Of a DNA stretch of 64,000 nucleotides, positions 5,725 to 62,018 are shown piece by piece (the first letter of the stretch is position 1; each line of letters starts with the position of its first letter). Both the position numbers and the translations under genes were made by a program. Below the pieces are notes generated by a model that saw only the letters and a program-made list of their open reading frames with translations, did not search any database and had not been told where the DNA came from. Origin of the DNA: a virus; IMG/VR virus record IMGVR_UViG_3300037418_004082; one strand, given 5' to 3'.

Positions 5725-6081
5725 CTATTTGGCGATGCCACGCGTCGGGAAAGGGAACGGACTCCACGTAACACCACAGTGCTCGCACGTGTGGCTCGTG
5801 TGCCGCACCATGGTAGGTTCGTCAACGTGCTTCTCGCCGCACGTGGGGCAGTCGAGCCGACAGTCCATACCGTTGTGGTTGATGTCCGCCGTGATGGCGT
5901 CCAGGTCTGCCTTCAGCGACGCGAACTGCGGGTAGTTAGCAAGTGCGTTGGCGTAACCCACGAGACCGTAGAACGCGAACGGGTCGCGCTCGTATTCGAA
6001 CGTGAACGTCGGGCCGACGGGCTTGCCGTCCGCACGTGTTACCTTGTACTTGTCGAACAAACCCTTGCCGTGTTCAGGCAT
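5725..6081 (-). CDS. phage protein with C-terminal Zn-binding motif
   Basis: CPTCGEKH...HTSHTCEHCG. Confidence 0.75.
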   Translation of the reverse strand: MPEHGKGLFDKYKVTRADGKPVGPTFTFEYERDPFAFYGLVGYANALANYPQFASLKADLDAITADINHNGMDCRLDCPTCGEKHVDEPTMVRHTSHTCEHCGVTWSPFPFPTRGIAK

Positions 6082-6433
6082 CTTTCTTCTCCTCTGCTTG
6101 GGCGGGTGGCTTCTTGCCGGCCTGGTGTAAGAGGTCGTCCATCATGGCCTTGGTCAGAACCGTGGTCGCGTGGCGGCCGTTCTCCGTGACCGCGATGTAC
6201 CAGCGGTTCTTCTTGTTGCCGCAGGCCAGATACCAGGATTCGAGCAGACCCCAGCCCTCCTTCGGGTAGAGCCAACGCTTGAAGTGCTTGGGCCGACGCA
6301 GCCGGGTGTTCTCCCACAGCATTCGCATCAACAACGTACGTGCAGAGTCTCGTGACGCTTTAGGGTCAACACGCTCGATGTAGCGCTTGACGGCGTGAGC
6401 AGACACGGAGACACCACGCATATTGACGAGCAC
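6074..6433 (-). CDS. basic protein, DUF4258/RelE-like (candidate BECR-fold RNase)
   Basis: SAHAVKRYIER N-terminus and TTVLT C-terminal strand; same pattern as 49090..49452. Confidence 0.55.
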   Translation of the reverse strand: MLVNMRGVSVSAHAVKRYIERVDPKASRDSARTLLMRMLWENTRLRRPKHFKRWLYPKEGWGLLESWYLACGNKKNRWYIAVTENGRHATTVLTKAMMDDLLHQAGKKPPAQAEEKKDA

Positions 6434-13782: not shown

Positions 13783-14058
13783 CTAGGAGGCGACCGCGTC
13801 TCGTTCGACGGCGACGATCGCCTCCGCCTCGCTGTCGATCCAGAGTTCGAGGGGGTTGGCGCCGAGCACGCGGCAGATAGCGAGGTAGATGCTGGTTTCG
13901 GGCTGGCGCTTGCCGCGCTCGTAGCGAGACAGGTACTCCTCGCGCAGCATCTTGGGGTTGCCCTGGTCGTCGAGGTAGCGCACGCGCATCGCCAGCTCGT
14001 GCTGGGTGAGGTTCAGGGCCGTGCGAGCAGCGATGCAGGCTTGGGCGTTGAAGGGCAT
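13783..14058 (-). CDS. XRE-family HTH regulator
   Basis: ARTALNLTQHELA...LSRYERGKRQP...ICRVLG; start moved to ATG 14058 after GAAGGA. Confidence 0.85.
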   Translation of the reverse strand: MPFNAQACIAARTALNLTQHELAMRVRYLDDQGNPKMLREEYLSRYERGKRQPETSIYLAICRVLGANPLELWIDSEAEAIVAVERDAVAS

Positions 14059-14376
14059 GCGGGGTCCTTCTGCGAGGAGGGTGGGAGGGGGAGGGGTATT
14101 TATTTTGGCCGCGTGGCCGCACGCATAACTTTCGCCGCACAAAAGTTGAAACCCTTCGGGCTCCTGGTGTTTCCGGGTCCCGGGTGATGCGTGATGCGGC
14201 CGGGGGCGGTCGGAAATGAGGGGGAGGGGGTGTTTGTGCTTGGGGCGTGAGAGGGTGCGGGTGGGATGTGGATGGGGTGCGAACTTGAGGCGGGTCCCCG
14301 GGTCGGGAGCCTATCTTCGCAGATGCCCCGATACCTGTCAAGAGAGCATGGGTGAACAAACTTTGTCGTTGAGACT

Positions 14377-14577
14377 ATGGTGTCGTGGCTCATGATGATC
14401 GGACGACGCGGCGTCGAAGAACGGCTGGAGGTTCATCGTCGCTGGGTCAACGAGTCAGGCGATCTGCATTCATATACATGCGAGGCGTTGGTGGATGGGG
14501 ATGAGAGGGCTAGGAAGGCGGTTGTTTTGACCCGGAAGGTCTCGGAGTACCCGCCACCCACCCACGGAGGGAAATAG
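14377..14577 (+). CDS. possible small hypothetical protein
   Basis: 66-aa ORF with plausible composition but no clear RBS. Confidence 0.3.
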   Translation: MVSWLMMIGRRGVEERLEVHRRWVNESGDLHSYTCEALVDGDERARKAVVLTRKVSEYPPPTHGGK

Positions 14578-14891
14578 GGTAGTTAGAGAGTGGTTGGGTG
14601 AGGTGCTGGAGTGGGGGAGTTAGGGTATGGATCGGTGGATTGGGTGGTTGGTGGGTGAGATCGGAGGGCGCCCATGTAGGTGCCGCGGGGTGTTCGGATC
14701 TCGAACGCTTGTTTGCACGGTTGCCTGCTGATCACCATTTTTATTTTCGCAACTTTTTCGATCGCCGGCCGCCGAAACAACAAAGCTATAGGGAGAATCC
14801 AGAAAATAACCACCCACCCCCTGGAACAAGAACACCATACGAGGACCGCCACCAACAACACCATAGGGAGAACAAGGGGGAGGGGGTCCCC

Positions 14892-14960
14892 AATTAAATC
14901 ACTATATATATATATATATTTTATTTGATAGTCTTACAAAATAAATAAATAAATAGGAAA
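14892..14960. repeat. AT-rich tract with (TA)8 and AAAT repeats
   Basis: (TA)8 at 14903-14918 and aaaataaataaataaatag in a GC-rich genome. Confidence 0.9.
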
Positions 14961-15048
14961 GGTTGGTGACGTCTTGTCGTTGGTATATCAACTCACGCTG
15001 TAAAATTCGGCGGCGTGCCTGTTTCGAATTTCGATGGTCCACGGGGTC

Positions 15049-15107
15049 CGGCCCGCAAACCCAGTAGGTTCGTGTCACATTGGCGCGGATACGTGGTTTG
15101 CGGGCCG
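15049..15107. repeat. 13-bp perfect inverted repeat
   Basis: CGGCCCGCAAACC (15049-15061) and GGTTTGCGGGCCG (15095-15107). Confidence 0.9.
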
Positions 15108-15166
15108 TGTTACGTGCTGGTGATCGGAGGGGTCCCCTGGTATTTTATCGCGCACGTCTCGTACGT

Positions 15167-15293
15167 GTGGAACGGGTGTTCCACAAACACGCGAAATTCG
15201 ATGGGGTCCTCGACCGAAAAGTGGAACGGGTGTTCCACACGCGCTCGTAATTCGAGGGGGTCCTCGTCGTGTTTGTGGAACGGGTGTTCCACA
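15167..15293. repeat. three palindromic GTGGAAC-GGGT-GTTCCAC boxes at exact 54-bp period
   Basis: Copies start at 15167, 15221 and 15275; both spacers contain AATTCGA(T/G)GGGGTCCTCG. Confidence 0.95.
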
Positions 15294-21325: not shown

Positions 21326-21459
21326 ATGCGTGAACGCCTCCTCTCTTCACTTGTTGGGATGCGACTGTAGTGCGTTTGATAACCCGGGAAGGTTACCGCT
21401 CGACCTAACTATACACGTGGCTCACGTAACCGTCAAGCAAGTTTGACGTAAAGCGATGT

Positions 21460-47535: not shown

Positions 47536-48090
47536 ATGAAACGCTGGATGACGTACTTGCTGTTGGCACTGATGGTGCTGCTGTCGTTGACGCCGCTCGC
47601 GCAGTCGAAGACCACGCGTGAGCCCGTGCAGAAATTGATCCACGCCACGATCACGGACGTACACGACGGCGACACCGTCACGGCGCTGGTCGATCCATTG
47701 ACCGTGCTGCACGTACGTTTGTTGGGTATCGACGCACCGGAGCTGAAGCAGGCGCCCTGGGGCGTGAAGTCGCGCGACACCTTGAAGGCCCTCGTGATGG
47801 GCAAGCTCGTGGCGATCATCGTGATGGACGCGGACCACCCGACCGACGTGTACGGCCGCACGCTGGCCTACCTGTGGGTCGGCAGCACCATGGTGCAGGA
47901 GCAGCTCGTGCTCGCGGGCATGGCCCAGACGAAGTTGTACGGCAAGGCGCCCAAGGACTTCCAGCGCCTGGTGGCGGCGGAAGCGATGGCGAAGGCAGCG
48001 CACGCGGGCTTGTGGAGCGACGAGGCGTTCATCGCGCCGTCGGACTGGCGCAAGCAGCACCATGTTGGGAAAGCCGGCGCCGGGAGATAA
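47536..48090 (+). CDS. thermonuclease (SNase-like) with signal peptide
   Basis: DGDT, VRLLGIDAPE, DVYGRTLAY, GLWS. Confidence 0.93.
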   Translation: MKRWMTYLLLALMVLLSLTPLAQSKTTREPVQKLIHATITDVHDGDTVTALVDPLTVLHVRLLGIDAPELKQAPWGVKSRDTLKALVMGKLVAIIVMDADHPTDVYGRTLAYLWVGSTMVQEQLVLAGMAQTKLYGKAPKDFQRLVAAEAMAKAAHAGLWSDEAFIAPSDWRKQHHVGKAGAGR

Positions 48091-48117
48091 TCCAGGTATG
48101 AGCGCTCAACGCGTTTG

Positions 48118-48390
48118 AATAGCCGAAAGGCGCGGGGAGGCGGTAGTGGTGCACCGCCCGTCTTCCTGTCTCTGGGGGCTTGACGCAGAGTGCCGCCGCA
48201 GCGTAGTCTGCACGTAGGTGATGATAGCCGGCCTGCCTGCCGGAGGGAGCCTTGGGTCGTCGGGTCGAAGCGCGCGAGCGTGATGGGACCAACCGCGTGG
48301 GGGACGGCCGCACCTGGCGGGGTCGGTGTCCACGTGAACCGCTGCGAGCGCGAGGCGCGGCTCTTGGGCAAGGCCGAACGTGCTTTTCTC
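48118..48390 (+). ncRNA. unclassified structured RNA
   Basis: Non-coding; hairpins GCC-GAAA-GGC, GGCGGT/ACCGCC, CTCTG/CAGAG, CCGGC/GCCGG; follows AGATAATCC at 48085. Confidence 0.5.
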
Positions 48391-48482
48391 GGCGAAGCAA
48401 GCTGCAGTGCGCCACGCCGGAGGTGGCAGGCTCCCGTTCCAGGAGCCCGGGAAACCCGCAGGTTCGACTCCTGCCTTCGCCA
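48391..48482 (+). ncRNA. tRNA-like RNA A
   Basis: 7-bp acceptor GGCGAAG/CTTCGCC and canonical T-arm GCAGG-TTCGACT-CCTGC; three interior hairpins, no canonical D or anticodon loop. Confidence 0.7.
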
Positions 48483-48518
48483 CTTGACGAACGCGATGGT
48501 CGTCTGCTAAAGTAGCTC

Positions 48519-48590
48519 CGCGCTGTAGAGCAGTGGCAGCTCGCGTGGCTCATAACCACGAGGTCGTCGGTTCAAGTCCGATCAGCGCAA
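48519..48590 (+). tRNA. trnfM: tRNA-fMet(CAT), initiator type
   Basis: Cloverleaf with C1:A72 mismatch, CTCATAA loop, TTCAAGT T-loop; CCA not encoded. Confidence 0.9.
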
Positions 48591-48593
48591 CTT

Positions 48594-48724
48594 GCCGGGC
48601 CGCTTGGCGTGGGTTACCGTTTTGGACAGTGATCCCCACGTCGAACTTTTGTCTGGCAAACCTCTGGGGGTGGGAGTGAATCCGGCTGCTAAAGCGGCCC
48701 CGGGAGTAGCACCCGGTTCCCCCT
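48594..48724 (+). ncRNA. structured spacer RNA
   Basis: GGGCCGCT/AGCGGCCC 8-bp pairing, GTGGG/CCCAC stem, CCGGG-N7-CCCGG T-arm-like hairpin. Confidence 0.45.
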
Positions 48725-48730
48725 TCAACG

Positions 48731-48856
48731 TAAGCACTAGCTACAAGCCGTGTCGCGAGGCACGGACACCGCCCGGGTGACCGGGGTTCACGGTGGGCAG
48801 AGCGACTTGAGGGGCAACCCTCTTGCGGGTTCCCGGTTCGAGCCCGGGGTGCGTAC
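48731..48856 (+). ncRNA. tRNA-like RNA B
   Basis: Acceptor TAAGCAC/GTGCGTA (6 of 7 paired), T-arm CCCGG-TTCGAGC-CCGGG, GAGGG-GCAA-CCCTC at the anticodon position. Confidence 0.6.
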
Positions 48857-48858
48857 AG

Positions 48859-48930
48859 GCTCCTCTAGCTCAACGGTAGAGCGCTCGCCTGATAAGCGGG
48901 AGGCACCAGGGTCAGTACCTGGGTGGAGCA
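48859..48930 (+). tRNA. trnI: tRNA-Ile(GAT) with non-canonical T-loop
   Basis: GCTC/GAGC D-stem, CTCGC-CTGATAA-GCGGG anticodon arm, T-loop GTCAGTA, one U-U in the acceptor stem. Confidence 0.8.
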
Positions 48931-48932
48931 CT

Positions 48933-49036
48933 GCCAAGCCGAACGTACGGACCGCGACCGCAAGGCGTAGGGACGTCGGACGTGACCCGACCCGCAAGGG
49001 CGGGGGTAGGTTAAAGAAGTCCTGCCGGCGGCACCA
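48933..49036 (+). ncRNA. tRNA-like RNA C ending in encoded ACCA
   Basis: GCC(AA)GCCG/CGGCGGC acceptor-like stem plus ACCA; GTAGG/CCTGC T-like arm; two GCAA tetraloop hairpins. Confidence 0.5.
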
Positions 49037-49089
49037 ACTTCGGGTTCCGTAACCATCCTGCACTCACGGCGGATAATCCTCTTAGAGGG

Positions 49090-49452
49090 TTGCCCGCCGT
49101 GAGTGTTTCTGTTACGCCACACGCCATCCAGCGCTACATCGAGCGCGCGTTCAACACGTCGCCCGACGCGGCGGCCAAGTTGATCATGAACTGCGTGCTC
49201 ATGGCCAAGGGCCGCAAGAAGCGTGGCCGGGACATGCTGATCCGGCGCGTGCGCATCCTGGACGGCCGGGGCGTCGAGCACTTCTACCTGAAGTTCGTCA
49301 CGCCCCAGCGCAAGCGCGTGTACCTCGCGGTGGACGCCCGGCTGTCGATCGTCTACACCGTGCTGACGCTGGAGATGTTCAAGGATCTGATCGGATCGCC
49401 CAGGCCGCGCACCGCGAAACGTCGTGACGACGCGGAGTTAAGCGACGATTAA
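49090..49452 (+). CDS. basic protein, DUF4258/RelE-like (candidate RNase)
   Basis: TPHAIQRYIER...YTVLT; same pattern as 6074..6433; preceded by GGATAATCC. Confidence 0.6.
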   Translation: MPAVSVSVTPHAIQRYIERAFNTSPDAAAKLIMNCVLMAKGRKKRGRDMLIRRVRILDGRGVEHFYLKFVTPQRKRVYLAVDARLSIVYTVLTLEMFKDLIGSPRPRTAKRRDDAELSDD

Positions 49453-49484
49453 TATTACGTTACAAGAAAGTTATCCAAAACCCG

Positions 49485-49514
49485 TTGACGGATCGGGAGC
49501 GGTCGCGGTAACGT
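49485..49514 (+). promoter_or_regulatory. sigma70-like promoter
   Basis: TTGACG-N18-TAACGT directly upstream of the structured non-coding block. Confidence 0.55.
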
Positions 49515-50040
49515 ATGAGAGTCCCGGTTGGGACGACGCTCTGCTCCCGGTTGTGTCGGGTGCGCTGCACGGTTTCCTCCTCTGGTGAGCTTGCCGCCTT
49601 CGATGGTAGTAGCTACCCGGCGAAAGGAGCCCAACGTGCGCCCTCCATGACCCCGACGAACGTCGAGTCCACCCTCCCGGAACTCGATCGGTTCTCCGAA
49701 CCCTCCCCTGGGTTCGCGCCGACGGAACGATGCTCTCGGCTCTCCTGCTTCGGCGGGGCCCAGAATCGGGAGCTATCCGCTTCACTCGCCCACGTGTGGT
49801 GCCTGGCAGCAATGCCTACTCCGTGCAAAGCTCGTGACGCGCGAGATGTCGTTCTGGCCCAGGTCCTGGTGTCGCGGCCAGGTTCCGTGCTTCCTCGTGT
49901 TGCAGGCTCGACGGCGATTAAAAGGCTGCTACCTCCGAACGCGGCATCCGGTGCTGCTGGCCCTCGTGGTCCGCGCGCCCACCGCAGGCAATCGCCAACC
50001 GACCCCCGTCGAGCCTCGTGCCCGGCGGGGTGTTTCGTTT
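49515..50040 (+). ncRNA. ~520-nt large structured RNA, unclassified
   Basis: cUUCGg at 49744-49757, GGCA-GCAA-TGCC at 49805-49816, 11-bp long-range helix 49904-49914/50006-50016, plus GGCGATT/AATCGCC. Confidence 0.65.
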
Positions 50041-50091
50041 GTGACGCTTCGTTACAAGTTCGAAATGTGACGGTTCATAAAGCTTGTCTGA

Positions 50092-50100
50092 TGATATACT
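50092..50100 (+). promoter_or_regulatory. extended -10 element
   Basis: TG-A-TATACT upstream of the AAGGAGG RBS of 50122. Confidence 0.5.
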
Positions 50101-50121
50101 CGTCAGAAGGAGGGCCGTCGC

Positions 50122-57355: not shown

Positions 57356-58294
57356 ATGACGTACATCCCCGGTTCTTCGGCCGCGGCCAGCCAGACCGTC
57401 TTCCCCTACGCGGGTAACACGGCCTTGCCCGACCTCTACGTGCCTGCAGGCCAGAGCGTCAACCACGACAGCACGAAGCAGTACAACGAGATCTTCGTCG
57501 AGAAGGGCGGCACGCTCACCATGTCGGGCTCGCTGGCGATCATGAAGATTCGCTGCCTGACCCTGATCGTGGCCGGCACGGTTCACGTGGACGGCCTGGG
57601 CTTGGCTGGTGGCGCGGGTGCCGCGGCGCCCGGGGGTACGTCCCAGGTGTCCGGCTCGTCGGGCACGGCCGGCACCGGCGTGAATGGTAACGCGTCCGCG
57701 GGCGCTGGCGGCACGGCGTCCGGCGCGGCCGGTCAGCAGTGCGGTGGCGGTGGTGGCGGCGCGGCCGGCACGCACAACACCGCGGGTACGACGGGCACCA
57801 CCGGTGCGACCGGTTCCAGCGGCGGCGCGGGTGGCGCGGGCGGCTCTTCCGCCGGCAGCACCTACAACGAAGCCACGGGTGGCCGCTTTGGCTCCGGTGG
57901 TGGCGGTGGCGGCTCGGGCGGCGTCGGTGCGGGCGGTGGCCTGGGTGGCAGCGGCGGCGGCGCGGGCGGCGCGGGCGGTGGCATCATCGACATCTTCGCC
58001 CAGACGGTGACGATCCTCGCGGGCGGCATCATCTCGGCCAACGGCGCCAACGGCACCACGGGCGCGGCCAGTGCGGTCAACGGCACCAACAATGGCGGCG
58101 GCGGCGGTGGAGGTGGCGGCGGCGGTGCCGGCGGCACCGTGAAGGTCCGCTACACCGGCACTTACACCAACAACGGCACCGTGCGTGCCAACGGCGGTTC
58201 GGCGGGTTCGGGCGGCAGCAGCAGCACGGGCGGTGTCGGCGGCGCGGGTGGTGTCGGCGGCACGGGCGTCGTGGACGTCGCGCAGACGACGTAA
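57356..58294 (+). CDS. Gly-rich fibre-like protein
   Basis: Poly-Gly tracts; IDIFAQTVTI...ISANG. Confidence 0.75.
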   Translation: MTYIPGSSAAASQTVFPYAGNTALPDLYVPAGQSVNHDSTKQYNEIFVEKGGTLTMSGSLAIMKIRCLTLIVAGTVHVDGLGLAGGAGAAAPGGTSQVSGSSGTAGTGVNGNASAGAGGTASGAAGQQCGGGGGGAAGTHNTAGTTGTTGATGSSGGAGGAGGSSAGSTYNEATGGRFGSGGGGGGSGGVGAGGGLGGSGGGAGGAGGGIIDIFAQTVTILAGGIISANGANGTTGAASAVNGTNNGGGGGGGGGGGAGGTVKVRYTGTYTNNGTVRANGGSAGSGGSSSTGGVGGAGGVGGTGVVDVAQTT

Positions 58295-58304
58295 GGAGTA
58301 GCCG

Positions 58305-58619
58305 ATGTCTCGCAAGGGAGCACGTAACGCGACGCGTCGCGCCATCACGAACGTCTCGACCGCCACGTACACCGTCAAGTCGGACGACGATTACATCTGC
58401 GTGAACCGCAACGGCGCCGTCACGCTCACGCTGCCGGGCACGCCCACGCAGGGTGACGAGTACGAGATCAAGGACGATGGTGGCTTTGTGTCCGCGTCCC
58501 AACCTCTCACGCTCAACGGAAACGGCAAGCTCATCGACGGCGCGAGCACGTTCGTGATGGACGGCGCCAAGTCCGCGATCAAGGTCACGTACAACGGTAC
58601 GCAGTACAACGTCAGCTAA
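58305..58619 (+). CDS. small structural module protein
   Basis: TLTLP..P..GDEYEIKD..G...L..NG..IDG, as in the C-terminus of 56234. Confidence 0.7.
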   Translation: MSRKGARNATRRAITNVSTATYTVKSDDDYICVNRNGAVTLTLPGTPTQGDEYEIKDDGGFVSASQPLTLNGNGKLIDGASTFVMDGAKSAIKVTYNGTQYNVS

Positions 58620-58630
58620 GGAGCATCACC

Positions 58631-59524
58631 ATGGCCTACCCCGGAACTTCGAGCGCGAGTTCGGCGACGAGCGGTTTGTCTTCGGGCACCGTCCTGAACG
58701 ACCTGTACGTCAGCGCGGGCACGACCGTCAACCTCGACAGCCTGACCGACAAGCAGTTCAACGAGGTCTTCGTCGAAAAGGGCGGCACGCTGTCCGTCGC
58801 CGCGGCGTCGTCTGCCATCCTCAAGCTGCGCTGTAAGACCCTGGTCTTGAACGGCACCATCTCCGTGGACGCCAAGGGCAACCCCGGCGGCACCGGTGGC
58901 GCGACCGGCACCAGTGGTGGCGCGGGCTCGCCGGGTAGCGCGGGCACCGGGCCCAACGGCAACAACGGGGCCGGTGCGGCGGGCGCCTCGGGGGCCAACG
59001 GCGGTGGCGGTGGCGCGGGCGCATCGCACGGCAGCACGGGCACGAACGGGACGGCTGCTGTTCAAGGTGGCGCGCTTGGCGGCACCGCTGGTGGCAGCTA
59101 CACCGAAACCTCGGCCGGTCGTCAGGGTGGCGGAGGTGGCGGTGGCGGTGGCGCGGGTGCCGCGAACTCTTCGGCCGGCAATGGTGGCAATGGTGGCAAT
59201 GGCGGTGGCGTCATCGACATCCTTGCCCAGGACATCACGATCGGCTCGGCTGGCGTGATCACGGCCAACGGCGGCGGCGGCGGAGGTGGCGGTGGCGGCT
59301 TGACCGGCTCGCCCAACTTCGGCGGCGGTGGTGGTGGTGGCGGTGGTGGCGGTGCCGGCGGCACCGTGAAGATTCGCTACACCAACTCCTACACCAACAA
59401 CGGCACCGTGCGCGCCAATGGTGGTGCAGCCGGAACGGGCGGCACCAACCAGTTCAGCTCCGCGAGCGGCGGCAACGGCGGCGCGGGTGCGAACGGCATC
59501 GTGGACGTCGCGCAGACGACCTAA
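58631..59524 (+). CDS. Gly-rich fibre-like protein, paralog of 57356
   Basis: Shares NE.FVEKGGTL, LKxRC.TL, TVK.RYT..YTNNGTVRANGG and VDVAQTT*. Confidence 0.8.
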   Translation: MAYPGTSSASSATSGLSSGTVLNDLYVSAGTTVNLDSLTDKQFNEVFVEKGGTLSVAAASSAILKLRCKTLVLNGTISVDAKGNPGGTGGATGTSGGAGSPGSAGTGPNGNNGAGAAGASGANGGGGGAGASHGSTGTNGTAAVQGGALGGTAGGSYTETSAGRQGGGGGGGGGAGAANSSAGNGGNGGNGGGVIDILAQDITIGSAGVITANGGGGGGGGGGLTGSPNFGGGGGGGGGGGAGGTVKIRYTNSYTNNGTVRANGGAAGTGGTNQFSSASGGNGGAGANGIVDVAQTT

Positions 59525-61410: not shown

Positions 61411-61436
61411 CAGCCAACCATATTTATCGTCTCCCG

Positions 61437-61474
61437 GACCCGCGCCTGATAATTCCACCAGGCGCGGGTCTTTG
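61437..61474 (+). terminator. 12-bp hairpin overlapping the TGATAATTC motif
   Basis: GACCCGCGCCTG/CAGGCGCGGGTC followed by TTTG. Confidence 0.65.
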
Positions 61475-61493
61475 TCGTGTCGGGAGACGGTCA

Positions 61494-62018
61494 ATGTTTG
61501 CCTGGTTCGTGAAGGGTTTCAATTGGCTCAAGCTGTGCTGGTCCGCCGTGATCAGCGCGTGCTTCCGCTTGGAGCGCCGCGCGATCGGCCCCTTCGCCTC
61601 GCCCGTCGAGGTCTGGCAGTACCTGGAGCGGCACTACACCTACACCGGCGACAAGCTGCTCGGCATGAACGTGGACTTCTACATGGACCCGTTCAAGTTC
61701 CAGACGGCCATGGAGCTGGGCAAGGCCAAGGACCTGCCGATCGACTGCGACGACGTGGCGAGCTGGGCGTACCACGCGCTTCTCACGGTGCCGAACTGCA
61801 AGCCGCGTGTGATGGTCCTGCATGACGCGCCGCCGTACGACGGGTGCCACTGCATCTGCGTGTTCGAACTCGACGGCAAGTACGGCGCGATCGACACGAA
61901 CGGCTTGTCCACGCTGCCGGACCTCTCGGAAGCGACCATCTGCGCCCACTGGAAAGCGTTGTACGCCGCTTCCCACTACGAGTACCACACGGCAACGGTG
62001 GTCACGTGTCCCTGGTAG
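61494..62018 (+). CDS. transglutaminase-like cysteine protease (BTLCP-like)
   Basis: IDCDDVA (cf. GDCEDYA), HCICV, AIDT give a Cys-His-Asp triad. Confidence 0.7.
   Translation: MFAWFVKGFNWLKLCWSAVISACFRLERRAIGPFASPVEVWQYLERHYTYTGDKLLGMNVDFYMDPFKFQTAMELGKAKDLPIDCDDVASWAYHALLTVPNCKPRVMVLHDAPPYDGCHCICVFELDGKYGAIDTNGLSTLPDLSEATICAHWKALYAASHYEYHTATVVTCPW

Follow-up and report, generated by a model that had tools for sequence, protein, structure and literature searches.

What is encoded where a densely packed phage genome gives way to DNA that carries tRNA genes and bears no mark of translation? We addressed this question for a locus in IMG/VR virus record IMGVR_UViG_3300037418_004082, of which a stretch of 64,000 nucleotides (nt), hereafter the window, was analysed. 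The locus, referred to here as the island, begins directly behind a thermonuclease (SNase) gene and extends from 48091 to 50121, with one small protein gene set into it. A sequence-only reading of the window had described it as a series of tRNAs, tRNA mimics without anticodons and two large structured RNAs around a candidate ribonuclease (RNase), accompanied by an NGATAAT motif and a sigma70-like promoter. The tRNAs, the tRNA-like elements, the promoters and the protein largely stood up to closer analysis; the two large structured RNAs did not. The explanation we favor, with a probability of about one in two, is that the island is a T4-type tRNA operon that includes extra tRNA-derived stable RNAs and a hairpin-gated gene for a protein of predicted toxin fold. 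We regard the locus as a plausible but unverified non-coding RNA cluster in a phage without relatives, a lead rather than a result.

A non-coding island in a dense phage genome

Genes are tightly packed in the window, phage DNA of 64% GC that encodes DNA polymerase, primase-helicase, a Dda-type helicase and an ATP-dependent ligase. Its genuine genes have a GC content of about 0.9 at third codon positions (GC3) and about 0.4 at second codon positions (GC2). In a GC3 plot this codon periodicity is gone over 48091-49089 and 49453-50121, and it is back over 49090-49452 and from 50122 on. The two non-coding stretches together amount to about 1.67 kb, in agreement with the long non-coding stretch that had been claimed for this part of the genome; they rank with an origin-like region as the longest parts of the window that lack periodicity. 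Their GC content, 0.61-0.65, is at the level of the genome.

Under the favored explanation, the GATAATCC motif at 48086 and the sigma70-like promoters at 48180 and 48484 would drive a plus-strand precursor holding two decoding tRNAs and three or four tRNA-derived RNAs, namely the tRNA-like elements A, B and C and perhaps a module (S2) of the spacer between them. These RNAs appear to keep the acceptor/T-arm minihelix of a tRNA and to lack a usable anticodon arm, and they would probably be excised as discrete stable RNAs. The cluster would end at a hairpin of -36 kcal/mol that hides the start region of the RelE/ParE-fold gene, so that read-through transcripts would be translationally silent, whereas transcripts starting from the copy of GATAATCC borne by the hairpin would lack its 5' arm and have the start open. 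Finally, a third sigma70-like promoter would give rise to an untranslated transcript of about 520 nt, either an RNA in its own right or a leader, ending at a terminator-like hairpin. The features concerned are the following.

48086-48093 (+): GATAATCC, sharing positions with the stop codon of SNase; candidate promoter of the RNA island, phage-type (-10-only)
48130-48172 (+): hairpin after the SNase gene, possibly a terminator or a processing site
48180-48209 (+): sigma70-like promoter P1, TTGACG-N18-TAGTCT
48216-48390 (+): untranslated leader of about 175 nt, 5' of tRNA-like A
48391-48482 (+): tRNA-like A
48484-48513 (+): sigma70-like promoter P2, TTGACG-N18-TAAAGT, with TG before the second hexamer; a pattern match
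48519-48590 (+): tRNA-fMet (CAU), no encoded CCA
48592-48727 (+): structured spacer
48730-48857 (+): tRNA-like B
48859-48930 (+): tRNA-Ile (GAU), no encoded CCA
48933-49036 (+): tRNA-like C, the weakest of the three
49060-49106 (+): hairpin of 21 pairs
49099-49452 (+): gene for a 117-aa protein (120 aa from a TTG at 49090), GC3 0.89
49485-49514 (+): sigma70-like promoter P3, TTGACG-N18-TAACGT, behind an AT-rich segment
49520-50040 (+): untranslated segment of about 520 nt, from P3 to the terminator-like hairpin
50005-50040 (+): terminator-like GC hairpin with a U-rich tail

Two tRNAs and three tRNA-like elements

Rfam 15 assigns only two elements of the island, the tRNAs at 48519-48590 (62.9 bits) and 48859-48930 (52 bits), both above the gathering score of RF00005 (29 bits) and both reported by ARAGORN as well. 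The tRNA-Met(CAU) has a C1xA72 mismatch and an A11:U24 pair and is therefore an initiator, as the sequence-only reading had it. The tRNA-Ile that it had also named is present; it contains a U6xU67 mismatch, and its T loop, GUCAGUA, is unusual. The comparison with Rfam, which had been put forward as a check on the novelty of the locus, thus accounted for the two tRNAs and left A, B and C without an assignment.

For the remaining elements we took a minihelix to be a T stem of 5 bp that bears a UUCRANN loop and stacks on an acceptor stem of 7 bp, with an unpaired discriminator after it; a decoding tRNA had to have an anticodon loop of 7 nt that includes U33 and, at position 37, a purine. The minihelix is complete in A, is represented in B by the T arm and 7 of 8 acceptor pairs, and is partial in C, where the loop has 10 nt. 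None of the three has the anticodon loop of a decoding tRNA, and B has GNRA tetraloops instead. On the plus strand of the 64 kb, a 5-bp stem with a UUCRANN loop occurs four times; A, tRNA-Met and B account for three of these, all inside 400 nt of the island. The four T-arm-like motifs found in other parts of the window lack an acceptor partner.

In tRNA-like A all helices are perfect. Its acceptor stem has 7/7 Watson-Crick pairs, which 1.7% of random positions equal (p 0.017), and it is followed by a D-like 5-bp hairpin, an anticodon-type arm, a mini variable stem and a canonical T arm with the loop UUCGACU; the discriminator is A and no CCA is encoded. The anticodon-type arm has a 6-bp stem and a 7-nt loop, CGUUCCA, in which G33 and C37 stand in place of U33 and the purine. 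The minimum free energy (MFE) of the element is -44.2 kcal/mol, with an MFE frequency of 0.45 and a z-score (z) of -2.3 against shuffled sequences. ARAGORN reports an aberrant tRNA-Glu(UUC) at 48401-48483, with ten extra nt ahead of the D-like arm.

tRNA-like B has a canonical T arm (loop UUCGAGC) that ends 10 nt before tRNA-Ile, and an acceptor-like stem of 8 bp with one mismatch that ends two nt before it; ARAGORN finds the element at a relaxed threshold only. In place of the D and anticodon arms it has three hairpins capped by GNRA loops (GCGA, GUGA and GCAA). Such hairpins reach 4/kb in the tRNA-like stretch versus 0.72/kb in the window, an enrichment of about 5-fold. As for tRNA-like C, the ACCA end that had been claimed is indeed encoded, and the fold is less convincing: an acceptor stem of 7 bp with an AA bulge, two GCAA hairpins, a T-like 5-bp stem with the 10-nt loop and no anticodon arm, called by neither Rfam nor ARAGORN. 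The spacer between tRNA-Met and B, for which structure had also been claimed, folds better than its shuffles and comprises a long hairpin at 48592-48659 (S1) and a three-way module at 48665-48727 (S2), which has an 11-bp closing stem and, beside its 3' strand, a 5-bp hairpin with a 7-nt loop. Folding is better on the plus than on the minus strand for the spacer (z -2.3 versus -0.6), B (-1.9 versus -0.6) and C (-2.0 versus +1.3).

RNase P, RNase Z and the CCA-adding enzyme recognize the minihelix formed by the acceptor stem and T arm. The discriminator is followed by CUU in A, tRNA-Met and C (in C, past the encoded CCA and one further A) and by CUG in tRNA-Ile, and this common 3' context suggests shared 3' processing of the tRNAs and the tRNA-like elements. 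Since the minihelix is kept and the 3' context of the tRNAs is shared, release by RNase P and RNase Z, as proposed by the sequence-only reading, appears reasonable, and excision of the tRNA-like elements is probable on the same grounds. The island holds non-decoding tRNA-like RNAs interleaved with real tRNAs, and these elements are clearly derived from tRNAs, yet cannot decode.

Several observations weigh against this explanation of the island. The acceptor stem of B (6/7 plus one pair) is not significant by itself, and the case for C is weak, consisting of a z of -2 for boundaries that were picked after folding. Even at E<=10, the tRNA model of Rfam misses A, B and C, and a GC content of 65% could account for part of the helices. 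The promoters, transcript starts and processing sites were all placed by consensus. In addition, no homologous loci were found, and all copies found are 100% identical and show no covariation.

The same elements might alternatively be products of decay: A, B and C would be pseudo-tRNAs left over from a formerly larger cluster, the rest of the island would be promoter, leader and terminator DNA, and the extra RNAs would have no function. The tRNA-Ile is itself degenerate in its U6xU67 pair and T loop, A looks like a tRNA-Glu(UUC) carrying an insertion of 10 nt and a damaged anticodon loop, both large pieces of the island fold no better than shuffles, and there are no matches to further Rfam families. 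However, A, B and C have hardly any mismatches in their helices, which are cleaner than those of tRNA-Ile, and B has gained three GNRA-capped hairpins instead of losing structure. Moreover, 1.67 kb of useless DNA would be unusual in a dense phage, the GC content of the island is genome-level, unlike that of AT-rich promoter segments and the origin-like gap, and three of the four sigma70-like promoters of the window are concentrated here. We consider decay a possible but doubtful account of the locus.

Promoter-like motifs

The NGATAAT motif noted by the sequence-only reading belongs to a well-populated class. GATAATYY has 8 matches versus 0.83 expected, all of them on the plus strand at gene or operon starts between 46448 and 61455, each a short way 5' of a ribosome-binding site or of the RNA island, and it is likely a -10-only promoter class. 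GATAATCC itself occurs twice, at 48086 and 49072, and the two copies bracket the tRNA island; the motif CGTTACAAG is not enriched.

The second class, TTGACG-N17-19-TANNNT, is found 4 times in 64 kb versus 0.43 expected, and 3 of these 4 promoters lie within the island. P1 has a predicted start near A48216, at the beginning of the leader, and the -10 hexamer of P2 ends 5 nt ahead of the 5' end of mature tRNA-fMet. P3 is the promoter that had been claimed before the ~520-nt region, with a predicted start near 49520. The sole copy outside the island, TTGACG-N17-TATAGT, is on the minus strand at 21408-21436.

A hairpin over the start of the protein gene

Between the tRNA cluster and the protein gene, the hairpin at 49060-49106 gives the strongest signal of a 120-nt sliding scan (-36.4 kcal/mol, z -8.1, MFE frequency 0.81) and was also found as inverted repeat I1. 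GATAATCC (49072-49079) is part of the 5' arm, and the 3' arm includes both the ribosome-binding site, AGAGGG (49084-49089), and the GUG at 49099 where translation starts. When folded computationally, a transcript starting at about 49084 leaves the start region open, and read-through from the tRNA operon buries it. By analogy with T4, we infer that the hairpin blocks translation from read-through transcripts.

A similar arrangement is seen at 61418-61500 (+). The hairpin there is nested (-46.4 kcal/mol, z -8.6), with an apical loop that contains GATAATTC and an outer stem in which the AUG of the gene at 61494 and its ribosome-binding site, GGGAGA, are paired. This appears to be a second promoter-in-hairpin translational gate, and its occurrence twice in the window suggests a T4-like strategy of separating early from late translation.

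The start region of the gene could also be the target of tRNA-like B, which would then act as an antisense regulator, or RNA antitoxin, pairing with the ribosome-binding region of the mRNA from the GATAATCC promoter and blocking translation of the RelE/ParE-fold gene. The segment 48812-48823, comprising the loop and 3' arm of the third hairpin of B, is 12/12 complementary to 49084-49095, and the match is centered on a GNRA loop of B and on the ribosome-binding site. Its P is 0.0013 (3000 dinucleotide shuffles), 16 other start regions reach 9 nt at most, and no protein antitoxin gene flanks the toxin-fold gene. This complementarity is the only quantitative tie between the island RNAs and the protein. 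However, it is a post hoc observation, and both segments lie in local hairpins with similar GAGGG/CCCUC arms, so that the match may reflect a shared hairpin composition; the start region of a paralogue (see below) has no such match, the island RNAs reaching 6 nt at most, and the protein is no more than a putative toxin. An antisense role for B is unlikely on this balance, although it makes a concrete hypothesis that is open to genetic testing.

The 117-aa protein

The small protein with an HAxxRYxER motif that had been noted in the island is encoded by a gene with the GC3 of a genuine one, and the motif, H-A-x-x-R-Y-x-E-R, lies in its N-terminal helix. Six remote homologues, with identities of 32-47%, came out of an exhaustive HMMER search; H8, A9, R12, Y13, E15, R16, Y63, A77, D79 and T87 are invariant among them. 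An AlphaFold2 (AF2) model built with the family alignment has a predicted local distance difference test score (pLDDT) of 86 (48.6 for a single-sequence model) and a predicted beta-alpha-alpha-beta4 topology, with the conserved polar residues in helix 1. In VIA-align comparisons the best match of the model is PrpT (Z 7.7, root-mean-square deviation 3.5, 83 residues aligned), followed by Thermus RelE (Z 7.1) and then ParE, YafQ, HigB2 and YoeB. Nearly all of the top 20 PDB structural matches are RelE, ParE, HigB, YoeB, YafQ or PrpT at Z 5-7.7; Z values below 8 are middling, and the list is coherent. Foldseek against PDB gave E~0.1 only. Neighbours in the ESM Atlas are DUF4258 and ParE_toxin clusters, with TM scores of 0.47/0.68 to one DUF4258 cluster.

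Based on the model, the protein is predicted to have a RelE/ParE (BECR-type) fold. The proposal of a candidate RNase is thus upheld as far as a predicted toxin-type fold goes and finds no counterpart in sequence families: the protein has no match in Pfam, PADLOC or the sequences of PDB, and DUF4258 (PF14076) is absent at E<=10. No small open reading frame (ORF) that could serve as an antitoxin gene flanks it in the window. A type III toxin-antitoxin system (ToxIN-like) was considered and rejected, as 47900-50121 contains no tandem repeat except a weak 11-nt array inside the downstream coding sequence, and no direct-repeat family.

A paralogue (34% identity, E 5e-11, HHalign probability 98.7%) is encoded at 6074-6433 (-), where its neighbours are small replication-region genes; it has T in place of D79. 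Neither the paralogue nor the six homologues, which represent four other phage contexts, have a tRNA or a large non-coding gap beside them. The conserved RNA-protein module envisaged by the sequence-only reading is therefore unsupported.

That reading had also given the tRNA-like RNAs a possible role as scaffolds for the small protein or as decoys, or sponges, that would divert anticodon nucleases of the host or defences that sense tRNAs. The retained acceptor/T-arm surface, the abnormal anticodon loops and the predicted RNase-toxin type fold of the adjoining protein would suit such a role, and phage tRNAs do counter tRNA-targeting defences, according to two reports (PMC10264068; PMC11464382). 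The cases described there, as we read them, are decoding-competent tRNAs with subtle loop changes and not anticodon-less mimics; the protein family is found without tRNAs in the paralogue and in the four other phage contexts; and a scan of 53 window proteins turned up no member of the Ro/TROVE, RNA ligase, Pnkp or CCA-enzyme families. We consider a decoy or scaffold role improbable. The broader notion that A, B and C form a new class of anticodon-less tRNA mimics, acceptor/T-arm minihelices bearing GNRA hairpins that are excised by the tRNA-processing machinery of the host and act in trans, either as defence decoys or, in the case of B, as an antisense antitoxin, seems to us rather unlikely.

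The two long untranslated segments

Structured RNAs of about 270 nt and about 520 nt had been proposed at the two ends of the island. Compared with dinucleotide shuffles, 48092-48390 has a z of +0.44 and 49521-50042 a z of -0.57, and the sliding scan is positive over 48150-48360 and 49710-49920, that is, over much of each; thermodynamic z-scores discriminate poorly for long RNAs rich in GC, and large-RNA structure counts as unsupported, not refuted. Neither the leader at 48216-48390 nor the segment at 49520-50040 matches an Rfam family. The first of these regions is better read as three parts: the hairpin that follows the SNase gene, P1 at 48180 and the leader. The hairpin appears in both the MFE and centroid folds (sliding-scan z -2.1 at 48060), and the leader has no codon periodicity and gives no sign of special structure.

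The segment of about 520 nt is probably transcribed, because it lies between the sigma70-like promoter at 49485 and the terminator-like hairpin at 50013-50040, which has a sliding-scan z of -2 to -2.75. It has no codon periodicity and no JGI gene. Two ORFs within it were rejected as genes: the first 600 nt of the 985-aa ORF at 49515 are a high-GC artefact without GC3 signal, and JGI left the region gene-free on an identical contig; the 78-aa ORF at 49834 also lacks GC3 signal and was not called by JGI. Positions 50006-50016 pair 11/11 with 49904-49914, in competition with the 5' arm of the terminator-like hairpin, which may give the 520-nt transcript a terminator/antiterminator choice at its end.

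Surroundings and search for relatives

The thermonuclease gene reported to adjoin the island upstream is the SNase gene at 47536-48090 (PF00565, E 2.7e-21). It matches the SNc+LTD model of PADLOC, the only PADLOC match among the flanking proteins. The N-terminus of SNase (47536-47610 +) resembles a signal peptide, with a pair of basic residues and a hydrophobic stretch of about 17 residues ending in A-Q-S. With this hydrophobic start, export is likelier than a role in an RNA module, and SNase is probably exported. Pfam matches among 43 further window proteins are restricted to helix-turn-helix (HTH) families and DUF3307.

Identical sequence is present in soil and rhizosphere metagenomes, on contigs of up to 193.6 kb. 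The other contigs of the phage are 100% identical, and contigs from four partial DNA sources are free of variants on the phage's own pieces; none of the public runs listed as containing the phage is an RNA run. No close relative of the phage was found in any collection searched. A 'distant' blastn search of 50,697 phage records returned matches to tRNA-Met only, and IMG/VR scans with the 120-aa protein, SNase, a 485-aa protein adjoining the island, the DNA polymerase and the family alignment of the 117-aa protein returned nothing, as did a scan of JGI metagenomes with that alignment. The exact 25-mer covering the T arm and acceptor of tRNA-like A has no match in GTDB genomes, and the 485-aa protein has zero homologues among 5.8 billion proteins. 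The best homologue of the ligase is 35% identical, and its locus has no tRNA.

Elsewhere in the window, 13981-15181 is a 1.2-kb stretch of low GC (0.56) with strong GC skew and no codon periodicity. Codon periodicity is also not clear over 57511-58381 and 58831-59491, which have very high GC (0.71-0.76) and may be non-coding or coding with unusual composition.

Comparison with known systems

Kinship with the GOLLD, ROOL and YrlA RNAs had been raised by the sequence-only reading and is not borne out. Like GOLLD and ROOL, the island has long non-coding stretches beside phage tRNA genes; unlike them, it has no Rfam match even at E<=10 and its long segments do not fold better than shuffles. In searches of 0.7-2.4-kb pieces with Rfam 15, no GOLLD, ROOL, T-box, ribozyme or transfer-messenger RNA (tmRNA) was found at the gathering threshold, nor at E<=10 with relaxed filters, and tmRNA was also ruled out by the ARAGORN run. 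YrlA is a non-decoding RNA with a tRNA-like T-arm/acceptor module that is sometimes phage-encoded, and it resembles the elements described here in that module and in not decoding. The best cmscan scores for YrlA (RF02553), however, are 18.7 and 17.7 bits versus a gathering score of 69, the 18.7-bit match straddles the junction of tRNA-like A and tRNA-Met rather than covering one element, and the Ro/TROVE family is absent among the window proteins scanned.

The 117-aa protein resembles RelE/ParE toxins and DUF4258 proteins in predicted fold and topology, and differs from them in having no sequence match, no adjoining antitoxin gene and its conserved polar residues in helix 1. Defence-escaping phage tRNAs are anticodon-loop variants, such as the T5 tRNA that acts against PARIS, according to the two reports cited above (PMC10264068, PMC11464382). 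As described there, they share with the island RNAs a phage origin in tRNA clusters, membership of the tRNA family and altered anticodon loops, but they decode, whereas in A the anticodon-type loop is missing both U33 and a purine at 37 and in B and C the entire anticodon arm is absent.

The closest layout is that of the T4 tRNA region, where a precursor of about 1.75 kb contains eight tRNAs and the species I and II RNAs with segB embedded among them, and where a hairpin occludes the start region of segB, a mechanism that according to the paper keeps late proteins from being made off early transcripts (PMC2330249). Both loci have co-oriented tRNAs interleaved with extra small structured RNAs, and in both the start region of a protein gene linked to the cluster is buried in a hairpin (PMC2330249); a single long precursor with multiple promoters would be a further likeness, suggested here by the promoter motifs. 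There are also differences. The two regions have no sequence similarity, the present phage is high in GC and its island has two true tRNAs only, its extra RNAs are overtly tRNA-shaped and carry GNRA hairpins, and the gated gene is predicted to encode a RelE/ParE fold rather than a GIY-YIG homing endonuclease. The function of the T4 species I and II RNAs has been obscure for decades, and if the tRNA-like elements prove to be stable processed RNAs, the island would provide a second, very different example of such a locus.

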